A program made the translations under genes and the position numbers. DNA of 63,510 nt, filler included. It is 10 parts of 10 records of this genome, joined end to end, with 100 filler letters (N's around TTAATTAATTAA, not from the genome) between each part and the next. Parts side by side here need not be neighbours in the genome. Positions count along the whole stretch, not along the records: positions 43,960 to 47,646 come from SRR7504441_5506; 9 more parts are not named here. One strand, written 5' to 3'. Under the pieces are notes generated by a model that was not told the origin of the DNA, made no database searches, and worked only from the letters and a program-made list of their open reading frames with translations. This document shows positions 4,618-60,023 of this stretch, one piece after another. The number at the start of each line of letters is the position of its first letter. The stretch's first letter is position 1.

Positions 4618-7315
4618 TCAACGCTTGATTTTGGGGAGGCGCCACAGGCCAACTGACATGTCGCCCTCGGCGGCAGCAGCTAGCACATACTTGCCATCGG
4701 CTACCGGCCTCCAGGCTATGCCGTGTGGCTTGTCACTCAATCCGAGCAGCACAGCCTTCTGTACTGAGAGCTCCATCTCTCGCATCTGCTGCTGCCACGA
4801 GGCTCGCTCCTCTGTCGTGCTCTCGTGCTGTACAACCTCCCACTGCTTCTGGATCGAGTCTATCACCTGGTCGAGCTCGACTGCCTCGCTTGGACTCCAA
4901 ATCCGCACCGTGTTGTCCAGCCCCGCCGAGGCCAGGAACCGGTCGTCCCCGCTGAACCTTAGCTGGGTCACAGCCGCTCCGTGCCCCCCGACCAGCTTCC
5001 GGATCAGCTCGAATGATTTGTCGTACAGCAGCACGCTGTCGTCCCGGCCGCCCACCGCGAGCATGGAACCGTCCGAGTTGAAAGCCACCGCGTACGCGCT
5101 TGGGAGCAGCCCCGGCCTGGGCGGGCTGAGCTGCCACTGGGCCAGCTCCGTCACTTGGCCGCCGCTCTCGAGCGCCGCGCCAAAGTCGACCACCCACAGC
5201 TGGCCGTCCAAGCAGCTGGCCGCGAGCACCGGCTGGTCCGCCCGCCAGGCCAGATTCGAGAGCGAGGCCCGCCCGAGCTGGTGGCTCACTATCGGCTCGA
5301 GTGCACCGTCCTCCAGTCTACAGAGCACGATTGTCCTGTCCCTCGAGCAGCTGGCGAGCAGCTTGCCATCCGCGCTCCATTCTATTTGGTTTATAGAGTC
5401 GGTGTGCGGCGTGGCCTTGGCTGCGTCGGCCAGCGCAGCCTGATGCAGCTCGCTCACTGAGCGTTTGAGCAACGTTTGCTGGTCGATCCGCTCGCTCTGA
5501 AGCTGTTCGAACACTGTGTTCAGCTCCATCTTCCTCTCGGGCACCGCTGTGTCGTATTCAGCCTGTGCCCCCCGTCAGAGCCCTCCAGCCACCCGGCCGC
5601 TGCCTGCATCGGGAAGAAAGCCTGTGCGAACTGGGTCTCCATCTTCTCGAGCTGCCCGAGCACCTCCGCCACCCTCCGGCCGGTCTCATCCAGTCTGCCT
5701 CCGTCCAGCACCAGCACGCTCCCGTCACAGCACCCGACTGCCACCTGTCCTGTGCCTGACCAGCTCACCTGCCTCCGCTGGCCGCCAGCCGCCCCGGCCC
5801 GGGCGCCTTATTCGGCTTTGCGAGCGCGAGCGAGAGCAGATTGGCCGGCTGTTCGGTGCTAAAGTCCCACAGCTGGAGCGAGTTGTCCTTGGGTGAGACA
5901 GAGACCAGCCGCGAGCTGTCGGAGTTGAAGCTAAGGTCAGTAGCTCCAGCCCCGTGCTCGTGCCCCTCCGGCCGCGGCTGCACCTCGACCGCCTGCTCCG
6001 GGTGGTCCGACACGTAGTGCGGCTGGTCCGGTCGGTGCTTTAGTGTGTTGCCCACCACCCGGCTCATCGGCACCTGCTTCAGCTGGCCTTGGCTCCGCTG
6101 CGCCGCCGCCTGCCGACCGCTCGCCCGGGCGGAGGGCAGGCCGGGCACCGCACTGGCCGCCGAGAAGACATGAAGACACATGCTCAGGTCCGGCTCAATG
6201 CAGACGATCGCCGCGTAGTTGGCTAACCGGCCGCAGTAGTTGGGCGCAGAGAACACAGTGAGCACCTTCCGCAGGCTCGCGCCCGACCGGCGGGGGGTTG
6301 TACCCTGCCGTTGTGCTGCATCCGGTAGCCGTCTTGGCAGAGCTGGTGCGCCCTGATGATCATTGAGAGCTGGTTCCTGTCAAGGAAGTCGTCTGTTATG
6401 TCCGGCCCCCAGGTGATCCCAGCCCCCCGCTCCGAGACCACCATCCCCTCCGGCTCCTGCACAATCGCTCGCCTAGCTCCGGCCCAAATCCTGGATATAC
6501 TATACTATACTATGCTATGCTATGCTATACTGGTATACTATGCTAACTACACTACCTGCGGGTCGCTCCAGAGCAAATCCTGAAAGCAGCTGTCTTGGAC
6601 CGGCTCGAGCATCTTGCTCAGCTGGCGGAGCGCCGGCACGGTCAGCCGGCCCGCGTCCTTGGGCAGCCCGCCATGCACAACGAAGATCTTTTTGTGCACG
6701 ATCGCCCATACAGGCAGCAGCGAGAAGCAAGTGTTGAACCGGAGCCGCAGGTTTGGCTCGGACGGGTACTTTATGCGGAGCTCCTCGTCAAACCCGTAGT
6801 ACTCGTTGATCGTGCACACCTCGTGATTCCCCCGCAGCAGGTGCACCCACTCCGGGTAGAGCGCCTGGCCCCACCGCTTACCCCCGAGCTGACCGGCCGG
6901 CCGCCTTCCATGCGCAGAGCAGCAAAAAGACCTCGGCGCCGTACTTGCCCCGGTCAACAAAGTCCCCGTCGAACAAGTAACGGTTGCTCTCCGAAGGCTC
7001 CCCGTTGAAGCTGAAAATCCGGAGCAAATCGTACAGCTGCCCGTGGATGTCCCCCACCACGGTCAGCCGGGTGCCCGGCGGGATGTCGAGCTCGATCCCG
7101 ACCGGCAGGCCGCTCAGCTGTTGGCGCATCATCCCGAGCAGCCGGTCGACCTCCTTGGGAGCCAGCACCGAGCCCTGCGCCCGCTGAAACTGAGCCGTCA
7201 GGTCCCGGACCCGCCCGAGCGTGAGCGGGCCGGGCCCGACGGCCCACTCGCCGTACCGGGCGAGCGGCGAGTGCTCCCCAAAGTAGCCCGGCGGGTGCCC
7301 CGGCTGGTTCCCCAT
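4618..7315 (-). CDS. PPP-family Ser/Thr phosphatase (PP5/PPEF-like catalytic domain) fused to C-terminal WD40 repeats
   Basis: GDIHGQ, GDFVDRG, LRGNHE, VHGG, DLLWSDP, IRAHQ, TVFSAPNYC. ORF 5765-6265 runs without a stop from SAPNYC into the first WD40 repeat (GHEHGA…LQLWD). More WD40 repeats in 4618-5768. Confidence 0.85.
6457..6555 (-). repeat. 99-nt intron with an AT-rich (TATAG/CATAG)n microsatellite in its 5' part
   Basis: Joins DLLWSDPQ|EPEGM; GTAGTG donor, TGCAG acceptor; pentamer repeats at ~6495-6550. Confidence 0.75.
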
Positions 7316-35637: not shown

Positions 35638-36774
35638 GCGGAGGTGATCAAGGTGGAGAGCCCTCAGGGTTAGGGTTAGGGTTAGGGTTAGGTGGAGAGC
35701 CCTCAGGGGGACATGTGGCGCCAGGAGGCGATGCGGCTCACCCCGAACGAGCCGCACGGGCCGATGTTTGACAACGCCAACAGGGGCAAGAAGTCGGTGG
35801 TGCTCGACCTGAAGCGGCCAGACCAGCGGGAGCTGTTCGGACGGCTGCTCGACACGGCCGACGTGTTTGTGACCAACATCACCCGGCCGGCGCTCCGGCG
35901 ACTCGGACTGGACTACGAACAGCTGGCCCCGGCGCACCCGCGGCTGGTCTACGCCCACCTGACCGCCTGGGGCCGGACCGGACCGCAGGCGGCCGCCCCG
36001 GGGTACGACGTGGGCGCCTGGTGGGCCGCCTCCGGGATCATGGACTTTGTGCGCTCGGACGAGACGGCGGGTCCCCCGCGGTACATGGCCGGGATGGGTG
36101 ACCTGACCACCGCATCCCAGCTGGTGGCCGGGATCGCGCTCGGGCTGCTGCACCAGCACCGGACCGGCCGGGGCCAGCTGGTGGACGCCTGCTTGCTTCG
36201 GTCGGCCATGTACGTCCAGGGATGCGCGCTCACGATGGCAAGTGTGGCCCAAACCAAGTCCGGACTGCACGGGTTCGACCCGAACCGGCCCAGCCCGATC
36301 CGGGCCGACCGCAGCGGGGTGTACAACCCGGGGATGAACAGCTACCGGACCAAGGACGGCCGGTGGCTGATGCTGGTCGGAGTCCAGATGAACAGGCACT
36401 TGCCCAACACGCTAAAGGCGATTGGGCTGCCCGAGCTGATCCCCGAGCTAAAGCAGTACCCCAAGAACCGCCGGGAACTGATCGCCAAGATGGACCAGGC
36501 GTTCGCTCGTAAGACCGAGCCCGAGTGGCGCCGGGTGCTGGACGCGGCCGGAGTGTGGTACACCCCAGTGACTAAGATGGAGGACATGCTGGCTGATCCG
36601 CAGGCCGAGGCCTGTCGCGCGTTCGTCAAGGTGCCCGGTGTGGGCTCCAAGCTGGTCTCGTCGCCAGTGCTGTTCAGTGGTAGCCGGGACGCCCCGGTCA
36701 ACCGGGCGCCAACGCTGGGGGCGGACACCGAGGAGGTGCTGGCCCCGCTCCGAGGCCCACGCTCCAAGCTCTAG
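35638..36774 (+). CDS. CoA-transferase family III (CaiB/BaiF), 5' truncated; C-terminal PTS1 (SKL)
   Basis: AEVIKVESPQGD (after removing intron 35653-35691), NRGKKSVVLDLK, ADVFVTN, PGYD, GDL, RTGRGQLVD, APTLGADT; ends -RSKL. Confidence 0.92.
35653..35691 (+). repeat. 39-nt GT-AG intron containing (TTAGGG)n telomeric repeats, flanked by a 19-bp direct repeat
   Basis: AGGTGGAGAGCCCTCAGGG at 35651-35669 and 35690-35708, with TTAGGGTTAGGGTTAGGGTT between; in-frame TAG if unspliced. Confidence 0.85.
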
Positions 36775-36957: not shown

Positions 36958-38394
36958 ATGAAGGGCGTCTCTGGACTGGGGAGCGTTCTGAGGGCGGCAG
37001 GCGCGGTGGCAGCACCACCTGCCCAGCTGGCTAGGCCAGCGCGCCGGTTCGCCAGCCGCCGTCCGGCGACCGAGGCGATCCACGCAGGGGAGGACCACCG
37101 GGCGGGCCACAAGGCCAGTGCGCCGGACATCTGCGTCTCCACCACCTTCTCCGTCGACCGGCTTGTCTCCTTCGACGCGGCCGCCCAGCCCGACGAGGCG
37201 GCGTACGTGTACACTCGCTGGGGCAACCCGACGATCGCGGCGCTGGAGGCCAAGCTCTGCGCGCTGGAGGGGGCCGAGGCCGGGCTGGCATTCGCGAGTG
37301 GGATGGCCGCGAGCACCGCAGTGCTGCTCGGGGGGCTATCGGCGGGGGACCACTGCGTGGCCTCCGAGATCGCCTACCCGGGCACCGCCGAGCTGCTCCG
37401 GAACACGCTCCCTCGGCTGGGCATAGCGGTCAGCCTGGTGGACAGCTCGCGGCTGGACGAGGTGCAGGCAGCGCTCCGCCCGGAGACTAAGATGATCTGG
37501 GTCGAGACGCCGGCGAACCCGATCCTCCGGTTGACCGACATCGCCGGAGTGGCCCGGCTGGCCCCCCCGGGCTGTGCGGTTGCGGTGGACTCGACCTTTG
37601 GCACGCCGGTCGCGACTCGGCCGCTTGAGCTCGGGGCCGACCTCGTGGTGCACAGCCTGACCAAGTACATTGGCGGGCACGGGGACGCGCTCGGGGGCGC
37701 CGTGCTCGGGCGGAGCGGCGAGATGGTCCGGCGGCTGAGCGACGAGGCCTCGATCCATTTTGGGGCGACAATCTCAGTGAGTGTGCCAGGGGCGGGGGAG
37801 GGGCGAACCGGGGCAGCCAATCAACGCGTGGCTGATCGGGCGCGGGCTGGCTACTCTGCCGGTCCGGATGCGGTGAACCATGCGGCTGGCGGGCAGCAGG
37901 CGCGGCAGGGCACATGAGGAGAACGCGAAGAGGCTAAGTGGGTTCCTGGAGAGCCACCCGGCCGTGGAGAGGGTGCTGTACCCAGGGCTGGCCAGCCACC
38001 CGCAGCACCAGCTGGCCGCCAACCAGATGGACAATTATGGCGGAATGATTGCGTTCCAGGCAGCCGTGCCCGGGCTGAATATAGGACCGAGCGGGTGCAG
38101 GTGCGAGGGGACGCAGTCAAGCTGGCCGAGGCGATGATGGGTCCGGACGGGCTGCAGCTGATCCACTACGCGGTCTCGCTCGGGCACCACCGATCGCTGA
38201 TCTTCTTGATCGAGACCGCCGAGGTCATGCGCACCTCGTTCCGGTTAGAGGGCCAGGCCGAGATGAAGCGGTGCGAGGAGAGGTACAGGGCGGTCGCTGG
38301 CGATGGGGTGTTTCGGTTCTCGGTCGGGCTCGAGGACGCTGACGATTTGATCGAGGATTTGGGCTCGGTGCTCGACAAGCACACCGTTTCGTAG
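36958..38394 (+). CDS. Cys/Met metabolism PLP enzyme (methionine gamma-lyase / cystathionine gamma-synthase-like) with a mitochondrial-type presequence
   Basis: YTRWGNPT, FASGMAA, ETPANP, VDSTF, HSLTKYIGGHGD, YPGLASHP, VSLG, RFSVGLED; 3 short introns. Confidence 0.9.
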
Positions 38395-43859: not shown

Positions 43860-43959
43860 NNNNNNNNNNNNNNNNNNNNNNNNNNNNNNNNNNNNNNNNN
43901 NNNTTAATTAATTAANNNNNNNNNNNNNNNNNNNNNNNNNNNNNNNNNNNNNNNNNNNN
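43860..43959. other. Artificial contig linker
   Basis: N44-TTAATTAATTAA-N44. Confidence 0.98.
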
Positions 43960-43989
43960 TTCACGCTTTTCTTTTTTTTTCTGCTCAGC
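43960..43989 (+). repeat. Left copy of a 30-nt inverted terminal repeat, TTCACGCTTTTCTTTTTTTTTCTGCTCAGC
   Basis: Exact reverse complement of 47617-47646. Confidence 0.95.
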
Positions 43990-44013
43990 ACAAAAGTGCC
44001 CGGTGGGGTGGGT

Positions 44014-44982
44014 ATGGCCCCCGTTTCCGTGCTGCTGTCGCTGCTCAGCGCAGCCTGCGCTGTCGGTAGCCCGCAAGCGCCGTGCGAGCCCAAGTTCAAC
44101 ACCACCTGCGCCAGCACGGCCAGCTGCGCCAAGTCGGCGTACTCTGGCACTGGCATGGCCTGCTGTCCGCTGCCCAACGCTGTCGACTGCGAGACTCCGC
44201 TGGGCAGCTGCTGCCCCAAGGGTCACACCTGTGAAAAGACCGGCTCTGGCTGGGAGGTTGTGGTCAGCTGCAAGCCAGAGGGCGGCGGGGCTGCCGTCCC
44301 AGGCACGCCCGCCTGTAAGCCGGGAGCTACCAACCGGATGAGCAAGACCCGGAAGAACTGCCTTATCATCGGCGATTCTGTCTCGCTGGGCTACACTCCG
44401 TTCCTCGCCGCCGCGCTGGCTGCGGACTGTGTGGTGCAGCACGCGCCTAGCGGGGGGGATGGCGGTGCTGAGGAGACCGCCTACGGACTCGAGTGTCTGG
44501 GCTCGTTTCTCTCCAACCCGGACGGACAGGCCGTCCATCCGGAGCTGATCATGTTCAACTTTGGCCTGCACGATGGCCCATGCAACGGAGTCAACACAAC
44601 CATCCCCGGCGGTGCAGGCCCTAGCGCGGTCTACCAACCGGAGCTGACTCAGATCGCAGCGAAGCTGAAAGCCCATACAGCCGCCACTAAGGCCAAGCTC
44701 CTCTTCGCCTTGACCACTCCCTGGCTCTGCTCGGCCTCTACAGATGCACTGATCCAAAAGCTCAACGGCGAGGCCGCCGAGGTGATGAAGGCCGCCAACA
44801 TCCCCACGGTCGATTTGCACGCCGCCGTTGTAGGGAAATGTGGCACGGCCCCCGTGGCGGAGTGCTTCGCTGCAAAGTCGTGCTTTTGTCCGCACTGCCC
44901 GGGCGGCGGGAATGCAGGGGGCTACTCGTGGCTCGTGAACAATAGCTTAGCCCCAGCCATCCGCGGTCTGTTACGTACATAA
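44014..44982 (+). CDS. Secreted SGNH/GDSL hydrolase with an N-terminal granulin-like Cys domain
   Basis: Signal peptide; CCPLPNAVDC…CCPKGHTC; IIGDSVSLGY; FNFGLHD; CPHC in the block V position. Confidence 0.85.
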   Translation: MAPVSVLLSLLSAACAVGSPQAPCEPKFNTTCASTASCAKSAYSGTGMACCPLPNAVDCETPLGSCCPKGHTCEKTGSGWEVVVSCKPEGGGAAVPGTPACKPGATNRMSKTRKNCLIIGDSVSLGYTPFLAAALAADCVVQHAPSGGDGGAEETAYGLECLGSFLSNPDGQAVHPELIMFNFGLHDGPCNGVNTTIPGGAGPSAVYQPELTQIAAKLKAHTAATKAKLLFALTTPWLCSASTDALIQKLNGEAAEVMKAANIPTVDLHAAVVGKCGTAPVAECFAAKSCFCPHCPGGGNAGGYSWLVNNSLAPAIRGLLRT

Positions 44983-45180
44983 TATTCGTTTGATTCATTA
45001 AAAACTTCGACTCACTCCGTACTCGAACGTACTTCAGATTTCAGTTTAAGTACGAGTACGTATCGAGTGCGAATTCTCTTGCTTACTCGCATTACTCGTA
45101 CTTACTGTCAGTACTCGTACTTTAGTTACTGCTTGAGTACATTTAATTCGGCGTTTCAAGACCAAATGCGTTCTAAACAA

Positions 45181-47617
45181 TTAACTACAAGAGCAATGGC
45201 CGTCCAAGTCACAGGAGAGCATTGCAGCTCCGGCAATATCGATTACGCACTCGATCGGCGTGACGCTCAAGCAGCCATCGCTTGAAATGCCGACTTGAAC
45301 TCGCTCTCCTCGACTACCGAGCACTGCCACGCTTTTGAAGCGCGACGAGCCGCTGTGGCTCGACCAGTTGGCAAAGCGCTGGGGTGAGATCGCGATGATC
45401 TTATTGAGCTCTCCAACGAAGATCGGCCCCACTGCAACAGGCACCAGGGTCCACAGGTCGAACCCAATACAGTAGTCCTGGCCATAGCCCGACTTGCAGC
45501 TGGTTGGCCTTGCATTCACTGCGAATTCAAACGGGTGGTCGTTATTCACCGGCTTCATTTGACCGCTGTAGTACTCACGAGCGCAGAACTGCTCGGGCAA
45601 CGATTGCGCCTTCTGCAGCACTCTAAGGTCTGACATCGGAAGGGTGCGTGGCTTCGAGACGTTGGCGCCAAACAGCACAAAGCTGCCTGCCAGGCTGAGA
45701 GGCGCCGCCCACAGGTGCGCTGCCCCGAGGTCGTTATCAGCCAAGCCAGCCACGGCAGCAACAAAGCTTGAGTCGGTGTTGCGCGCTGGGCGAGTCGGTT
45801 TGAGTAGAGTACCGTCGGCCCGACACACCTGCATCAGCCGCGTCCTGTTCGCAAGCCCAATCCGATCTGCAAACCCGACAGGCCCCGCGAGCAGTGCTGA
45901 AACCACCGTCTGCAGCTCCGGGTCGGCTTCGGTCGCCGGACTCCAGTCGCTGCCCGGCTCATTAGTGACAGACCAGAACGAGTCCTTGAACGGCACCAGA
46001 CCGACTGACCAGTAGAGCAAGCTGGTCATCCCGGTGGAGCTCCACTGCTCGGAGTCGTCTGAGCGGCTTTGGCCATAGTCGTGACTGGCCCGGGCATGCG
46101 TCACACGCGGGAATGCAGCCGAATGGAGAATGTGCCTGGGCAGGGCCATGCAGTACTGAATCGTCACGTTCTCGGTCTCAGCGGCCTCGGCCATGGCTGC
46201 TAGCCAGGCCGCAGCCAGCCCAGGCTCTTGCTGCAGCGGGGTGCACGCCTCATACTGCCTTGCCAGGAAGTCTTGCTCATAGGTACCCATCCCGAGTCCG
46301 GCTTTGGCACGCGAGAAAATATGCTCAAAAAGCCTCCTATCCAAGCTCACAGCCACTCCGGAGCCTACTGTCCAGTTCAGCCCGGTTAGGTTGGACATGC
46401 CGGGCGCCCTGCCGGTGATGTAGTCGTTATCAGACTCAAACCATCGAGAGTGGGTGATCGTGGGCAGCCCCGACAGCCGGAGCCACGAGTCCGGCGGCCC
46501 GTTCACTTCCGGGCCCCCGAGAGTCGAAGGCAGCGGCTCCCATAGCTTGATCCCCTCCTGGGCTCCCTTATAGTACCACCACGAATCAAACTGCACCGCT
46601 CCCACCGGAATCCGACGCTCGGTGAACTCAGTTTGAAGCATCCTAAGTGTAGCACGGTAGCCGGTACCATTGAATGGCAGCGGCGGGATCACTTTCGGGC
46701 ACTCAGCTCTGCTGCAGCAGGTGCGGTTGCTCGGGCAGCTTCCGTTGGCAGTCCGGTAGTAGTAAAATCCACCGTTGTCCATATAGTACGACAACTGGCG
46801 GAGCCCAGGATCCCTCACTGCTCGATCCATCGAAGGACGGCTTTTGTGACCACCTGCAGCTCGCATTACAAAGTCGCCCCACAGCTCCATCGCGGCTGTC
46901 AGGCTGTCCCCCGCCACCACCAGCGTCTCGTGCACGTGCCCGGCCGGCACTGCCCTGAGCGTGCCCTGCAGCCCACAGCTAAAGTTCCCTCGCATCACCT
47001 GACTGGCCGTCTGACAGGCCGTGAAGAAATCTCGAAGCGGCGAGATCACCAGTGCCTTCCCGTCGTCTGCCACCAGCACCAGCGGCATCCCTGACCCGTC
47101 CGTATCCCCCCGCTTTCCCCGGGACGTGCCCCGCCGGTTCGCATCGTCGAGCCCGAAGGCGGTGCCGGCTCGCCACCGGAAAACCCTCGAGTTTTGGAGC
47201 TGGATCCCTTGGTACATGAGCACCGCCACGTCCCTGGCCAGCCGGCTGAATGACGGGAACCCACTTACCACTTCGTCAGTGCTGCCGTTCCGGTTGCGGG
47301 GCTCTAGCCCGGAGGGGAATCGCTGGATCAGCAGCTTGACCTCGGCATGCGCCGTGTACGACCGGACGGCGGTCTGCCAGCGCAACTGCCCGCCGGTCCA
47401 CTCCAGCCCACGCTCGGCGTACTGGCCACCCAGGCGGTCGTTCCCGGTCCGGACTGGCAGCTTTGTCGGGGAGAGCGCGGTGCAGCCGGTGGCGGCCAGG
47501 GCGGCGCAGTCGGAGGAGAACCAGCGGGCCTGGTGCCGGGCGGCGACGGTGTCGGCCCCGAGCCAAGGTTGGCCGTCCATGCTGAGCCAGAGCAGCTGAG
47601 AGGCAGTCCACACAGCG
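45181..47617 (-). CDS. Large putative glycoside hydrolase (GH27/GH36 clan-D-like TIM barrel); 5' exon missing
   Basis: 810-codon ORF; DNGGFYYY, QFDSWWY, YEQDFL, QYCM, RASHDY, PFKD, GPVGFAD, DGTLLKP. Confidence 0.65.
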
Positions 47618-47646
47618 CTGAGCAGAAAAAAAAAGAAAAGCGTGAA
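47617..47646 (-). repeat. Right copy of the 30-nt inverted terminal repeat
   Basis: GCTGAGCAGAAAAAAAAAGAAAAGCGTGAA. Confidence 0.95.
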
Positions 47647-47746
47647 NNNNNNNNNNNNNNNNNNNNNNNNNNNNNNNNNNNNNNNNNNNNTTAATTAATT
47701 AANNNNNNNNNNNNNNNNNNNNNNNNNNNNNNNNNNNNNNNNNNNN
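47647..47746. other. Artificial contig linker
   Basis: N44-TTAATTAATTAA-N44. Confidence 0.98.
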
Positions 47747-59947: not shown

Positions 59948-60023
59948 AGACAGTTTTGGCTCAAAGGGCTCGGGTGGGTGGTTCGCGCCGTCCGACGTGA
60001 AACGCTTGTTGGCTGCAAGGACA

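Follow-up and report, generated by a model that had tools for sequence, protein, structure and literature searches.

The identical 30 nt at the two ends of contig SRR7504441_5506 (positions 43960-47646) are a real coincidence in the assembly, but they do not make up the biological element that had been proposed. We consider it probable, with some reserve, that a local inverted copy of the region upstream of an SGNH hydrolase gene was joined at an 8-9-nt microhomology to the 5′ end of a facing glycosidase gene, either in the cell or during amplification. Read in this manner the observation matters little, the 30-nt "element" being what the assembler made of a single local join, and it warns against counting double-ended 30-nt contigs of the present genome as introners.

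The window analysed is a stretch of 63.5 kb in which ten contig pieces are chained through artificial 100-nt N-linkers, and the copy counts given below for the window cover this length. Positions 43960-47646 are a single contig, bordered by the linkers at 43860-43959 on the left and 47647-47746 on the right. Reading inward from the two ends, the sequence is the same for exactly 30 nt and diverges at base 31; the left copy lies at 43960-43989 (+) and its exact inverted copy at 47617-47646 (-). A sequence-only reading of this DNA had described a perfect inverted repeat whose identity stops one base after CAG, each copy adjoining one of two convergent genes, and all of this was borne out, as the C following the AG is shared, the SGNH start codon lies 24 nt past the left copy and the right copy is in frame with the glycosidase. 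No third copy within 8 mismatches was found elsewhere in the window, none of its 16 other true contig ends carries the 30-mer, and for the remaining 18 segment ends (those 16 and two window cuts) the longest match elsewhere in the window was at most 11 nt. When two of 18 ends are marked at random they fall on the same contig in 5% of cases, a figure of little weight since the finding was chosen for this property.

The contig comes from a eukaryote of high GC content (about 61%) whose introns are short, probably a marine protist; a telonemid-like affinity would agree with Telonema subtile being the best-scoring named relative of the glycosidase. Contamination of the bin was rejected on composition, the tetranucleotide profile of the contig (0.93) falling inside the range of its neighbours (0.90-0.97). 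An Rfam scan of the sequence gave three chance-level matches, none of them at the contig ends, a scan for bacterial promoters stayed at chance level, and blastn against plasmids returned no match and hence no sign of a plasmid vector; the 30-mer is not known to match a sequencing adapter or primer. A search of sequencing runs returned eight matching runs with a best share of 0.14, and among 14 pieces from four of these DNA and RNA runs that were aligned (the shortest 35 nt) none lay over either end or came within 160 nt of the left end or 117 nt of the right one, which is no sign that such sequence is absent.

The exact length of the repeat appears to be set by the assembler. In a node-centric toy de Bruijn graph with k = 31 and two inverted copies, the contig was returned base for base whether the repeat was 30, 31, 42, or 230 nt long, while graphs with k = 25, 29, 33, 41, or 55 did not reproduce it, and we infer that the assembly was made with k = 31. 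The 30 shared nucleotides are then likely the k-1 stub of such an assembly: the shared length is k-1, it is flush with both ends, and no k-mer is repeated inside, all for the k so deduced. No 31-mer is repeated anywhere in the window, although this is a weak test in 63 kb; contigs of the Logan type have all 31-mers distinct (PMC12424806). The k-1 overlap stubs of node-centric Logan/Minia3 assemblies (PMC12424806) resemble the present case in exactly this respect, 30 shared bases flush with both ends, with the difference that for this window k itself is deduced. The suggestion that the assembler broke at shared sequence is thus supported by the toy graph, while the idea of 30 nt as a biological unit is not, because the length follows from k; the true repeat must be at least 30 nt long, and only its inner edge is biological. 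A fold-back alone also reproduced the contig. When the unrearranged molecule was added to the graph, the right end stopped at the microhomology instead.

The same property of the graph limits the number of copies, because a third copy, if followed by the base that follows the 30-mer at one of the ends, would shift that end inward. For a family ending at the shared C, simulations with 2, 10, and 50 further copies gave back the contig in 13/60, 0/60, and 0/60 runs, respectively, and for a family ending at the AG in 44/60, 11/60, and 0/60; under the most lenient copy model the chance was 0.32 with 20 extra copies and 0.003 with 100. This bound presumes k = 31 and complete coverage of the copies by the reads, and on those terms a high-copy family is unlikely. 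In any assembly with k = 31, a pair of contig ends beginning at the same base with exactly 30 nt in common can be used again in this way to bound the number of further copies. Pattern scans for the 30-mer that allowed a variable T run gave no hit in metagenome, viral, and prokaryote collections, from which the organism itself seems absent, and a shorter pattern gave none in viral contigs. The two independent insertions of a high-copy introner that had been suggested therefore found no backing: no further copy appeared in the window or the three collections, and under k = 31 extra copies would shift the ends. That suggestion had come with a proposal to search for the 30-mer and had named a find of only two copies as counting against it, and it is this case that the window fits best.

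Whether the 30-mer can be a splice acceptor was judged against 18 hand-picked, frame-checked host introns of 37-50 nt. The 30-mer has the textbook layout of an acceptor, with an A at -26, a tract of 95% pyrimidine, and CAG, and only two of the 4024 YAG sites in the window have a comparable T-tract, both of them the 30-mer copies. Its T-rich tract had been called unlike the other introns, and rightly, as the T fraction near the 3′ end is 0.75 compared to 0-0.40 in the 18 introns. An A at -10 to -17 is present in 17/18 host introns and missing from the 30-mer, and the base after the AG, which is C in both copies, is G in 14/18 host introns and C in 2/18. The splice-site reading is weak, since the host branch-like A is missing and since the last nine bases encode Leu-Leu-Ser in register with the N-terminus of the glycosidase family. 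An acceptor of the host type (A at -12), 21 nt farther downstream than the right stub, was considered and set aside because its use would cut homologous codons. In the curated intron set, two of the 18 are GC-AG introns, at 6865-6904 (-) and 38060-38100 (+). Elsewhere in the window, at 35651-35706, a 22-nt tract of telomere-type repeats stands between two exact 17-nt coding copies ending in CAG within a gene of CoA-transferase family III. The tract has the look of an insertion left by break repair, and splicing could remove it as a GT-AG intron of 39 nt.

The left stub consists of a T-rich tract and a 9-nt tail and belongs to the upstream or 5′ region of the SGNH gene. The tail (43981-43989) recurs 60 nt downstream, at 44041-44049, inside the leader codons of that gene, and occurs five times in the whole window, while three occurrences of its six-base core lie within 70 nt of the right contig end. 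In the window the six-letter motif was seen six times where two were expected (p about 0.016, post hoc). T-tracts lie 60-120 nt upstream of 3/24 other start codons (26 hand-picked, two dropped for having no ATG) against a background of 2.2% (p about 0.016, likewise post hoc). Given T-tracts at other starts and the excess of the tail motif, the left copy can equally be read as ordinary 5′ flank.

The gene that follows it (44014-44982, +) is intronless and encodes a 322-residue granulin and SGNH/GDSL hydrolase protein, matched by Pfam families PF13472 (E 7.5e-6, under its cut-off) and PF00396 (E 2.6e-4), with an N-terminus that by eye is hydrophobic and signal-like. Its relatives at 82-86% identity cluster with Picozoa members known from SAGs, and further relatives are found in diplonemids and one choanoflagellate. 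These relatives are far closer than those of the glycosidase (45-50%), and a recent transfer of the granulin-SGNH gene between protists is possible, judging by the sequences. Both families are spread across unrelated marine protists. An AT-rich spacer of 198 nt (44983-45180) separates the two convergent genes, stop codon to stop codon.

The glycosidase gene (45181-47625, -) is also intronless and was assigned from its relatives and a predicted model. An open frame of 821 codons, ending at 45181 and intact throughout, runs in frame with the right 30-nt copy. Its relatives include Telonema subtile (47%, the best-scoring named one), Picozoa (50%), and Stephanoeca (45%), and neither Pfam nor the PDB sequences gave a hit. 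The predicted model has a pLDDT of 76 and matched chains of GH36-type galactosaminidases and alpha-galactosidases in Foldseek (E 4e-15), so that the modelled fold resembles GH36/GH97; a search of the Atlas returned only unnamed or mutarotase-fold clusters. At 45213-45255, a contig of run X3 matches the last glycosidase codons exactly over 43 nt and then continues with at least 255 unrelated AT-rich letters, a divergence that may be an insertion allele, a paralogue, or a misjoin.

No ATG stands at the family start position of the glycosidase, the first one being at 47580 (residue 23). To place that start, the first 200 residues were searched against 1.8 billion representatives, giving 40 hits, in 7 of which the stretch matched by HMMER starts at query residue 8-10. 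Of 39 new hits, 25 were aligned by anchoring on residues 24-120 only, so that the N-terminus was not used, and 23 of these were retained, one being too short and one lacking the anchor aromatic. The last nine nucleotides of the right stub (47617-47625, -), the putative microhomology and native start region, encode Leu-Leu-Ser as residues 8-10 of the frame. In the anchored homologues Leu occupies column 9 in 14/23, and a Met falls in columns 6-9 in 15/23 (3, 5, 5, and 2, respectively); the five at column 8 correspond to a CTG codon in the query. Columns 1-4 are empty in 15/23. The profile score of residues 8-10 was matched by 0.16% of random window peptides (p 0.0016), while that of residues 1-7 was matched by 32% (p 0.32); the score of residues 9-22 was reached by 0.2%, and residues 11-18 alone scored weakly (p 0.11-0.20). 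These tests were post hoc, the homologues are related to one another, and the search query contained residues 1-10. Five homologues collected earlier show the same N-terminal trend as the 23, and residues 9-13 fall in the first strand of the model, which was itself steered by an alignment.

Because residues 8-10 match the family N-terminus and residues 1-7 do not, the gene would be missing only about its start codon, which in the family pattern would have stood at or immediately before residue 8. Native glycosidase coding sequence likely continues across the supposed AG and into the repeat, to judge from the protein alignment. The glycosidase had been described as lacking its 5′ end, and in any large sense this does not hold: in its relatives the start is no more than a few codons from the junction, and the 30-mer itself contains the first residues of the family. 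This coding homology across the AG also speaks against a high-copy introner, as do the missing host branch-A spacing and the C after the AG in both copies. A search of shorter proteins for an N-terminal fragment from the same species returned none. Two other readings of this region were weighed. Initiation at the first ATG (47580, residue 23) is possible and its context is good, yet homology reaches upstream of it (residues 11-22, p 0.017-0.023); an HMM built from 12 homologues gained only 2.4 bits, with its alignment beginning at residue 19. A signal-peptide exon shared by the two genes, which both open in the same frame through the repeat, was rejected, as no frame through the repeat has a stop, the chance of a shared frame is 1 in 3, residues 1-7 are unlike the homologues, and the SGNH protein has its own leader.

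The simplest account of these observations is that the glycosidase start and the SGNH upstream region had 8-9 bases in common, at which synthesis passed from one to the other. A strand extending out of the 5′ end of the glycosidase would pair through these bases with the opposite strand at a distance of 3.6 kb and would then copy the SGNH upstream sequence, and the assembler, meeting one 30-mer with two continuations, would cut both contig ends. We infer that the SGNH side was the donor and that the microhomology measured 8-9 nt; the left stub is then the likely donor copy and the right stub the likely recipient site. Microhomology-primed template switches and templated insertions at DNA breaks are a known mechanism. 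In multiple displacement amplification (MDA), the commonest chimera is an inverted join less than 10 kb apart with 2-21 nt of complementarity (PMC1855051), and the present join has the same form, inverted and over less than 10 kb, with a short putative microhomology of 8-9 nt. It differs in that neither the native allele nor the outer end of the copy was seen. Orientation and distance are seen directly; the homology at the junction is deduced from the protein relatives only.

Two settings can be considered for this inverted join. An event in the cell, by template switching or by templated insertion at a break, is tentatively favoured, although we would put it no higher than possible, and a chimera made during amplification is the more doubtful of the two. 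What tips the odds is that, with an unrearranged molecule present, the right end stops at the microhomology, so that an origin in the laboratory would require the native path to have been absent or pruned. The intact 821-codon frame is a point against the join, being unlike a long-dead gene. It means that an event in the cell would have been recent, or that a short insertion is spliced out, or that the ATG at 47580 is used; a short templated insertion could have left the native start upstream and itself be removed by splicing. If the join was made in the cell, it would be a further case of local templated copying in the present genome.

A low-copy introner is an unlikely explanation. It would require two independent insertions of an element whose 3′ splice site is rich in pyrimidines, one into the SGNH 5′ UTR and the other just past the glycosidase start codon. 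The boundary does lie within one base of CAG, after the only strong acceptor-like T-tract site in the window, and, as with introners (10.1101/2022.06.06.494994, PMC12130899), two unrelated genes share an identical sequence whose end is near an AG. Introners are defined by four or more similar sequences whose host genes belong to different paralogy groups (PMC12130899), while here there are two copies in the 63.5-kb window, both on one 3.7-kb contig, and none in the three collections. No donor, target-site duplication, terminal inverted repeat, or splicing was seen with these two copies. High copy number is disfavoured, since 50 or more copies are incompatible with unshifted ends under k = 31. 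In addition, 0/16 other true contig ends carry the 30-mer, the A at -10 to -17 found in 17/18 host introns is missing, and the C after the AG occurs in only 2/18; the metagenome, viral, and prokaryote collections hold no copy, with the reservation that the organism seems absent there. Similarity is also not confined to an intron, as the base after the AG is identical and the nine bases around it match the coding N-terminus. Target duplication could rescue the introner here, as it could put coding bases at an introner end (10.1101/2022.06.06.494994), and so explain Leu-Leu-Ser inside the repeat; the telomere-repeat insert of this window may be compared. No paper was found on Telonemia together with introners, and none among the matches listed, by title and opening of the abstract, on nuclear intron families of Telonema.

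Quite unlikely, too, is a non-autonomous, Pack-MULE-like transposon that carries both carbohydrate-active genes, driven by promoters in its terminal inverted repeats (TIRs), the inner ends of which would be the 30 nt. For such an element two copies suffice, as the toy graph shows, and each of the gene families occurs in marine protists that are not related to one another. In MuDR, too, convergent genes start at the inverted repeats, with promoters in the TIRs (PMC3310237); the TIRs named there are 100-500 bp long with target-site duplications of 9-11 bp, whereas this contig has only the inner 30 nt. However, no transposase, outer TIR end, target-site duplication, or second copy of the unit was seen, and the SGNH-glycosidase unit did not appear as a cassette in viral contigs. 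At 15 loci of SGNH relatives (all from other organisms, at no more than 67% identity) the glycosidase is found in 0/15, and they hold nothing closer than 11 mismatches to the 30-mer. The nearest relatives of the two genes are very unlike in distance (82-86% for SGNH, 45-50% for the glycosidase), and the contig composition (0.93) lies inside that of its neighbours (0.90-0.97). Were it true, such an element would package intronless carbohydrate-active genes in a telonemid-like protist, a possible vehicle for their patchy spread among marine flagellates and a way for genes to move between marine protists. All remaining causes taken together, gene conversion between 5′ flanks among them, we hold to be rather improbable.

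It is very improbable that two cDNAs, retroposed or fused tail to tail, have kept a spliced-leader exon whose 3′ end would be the 30 nt, or that these are a trans-splice acceptor common to the two genes. Neither gene has introns, each begins shortly after the repeat, and known leaders contain UUU and end in G (PMC6053224), but long intronless frames are common in the window, no other window gene carries the 30-mer, there is neither an Rfam match nor a polyA remnant, and the repeat contains glycosidase codons. Spliced-leader trans-splicing is recognised by the same leader on many mRNA 5′ ends and by SL genes with a donor behind the leader (PMC5619915). No paper on trans-splicing in telonemids appeared among the matches listed. 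At 59953-59964, the start of another contig and about 65 nt upstream of what we take by eye to be a pyruvate-dehydrogenase-kinase-like gene, a short T-run motif is similar to the dinoflagellate spliced leader at its 3′ end and may be chance.
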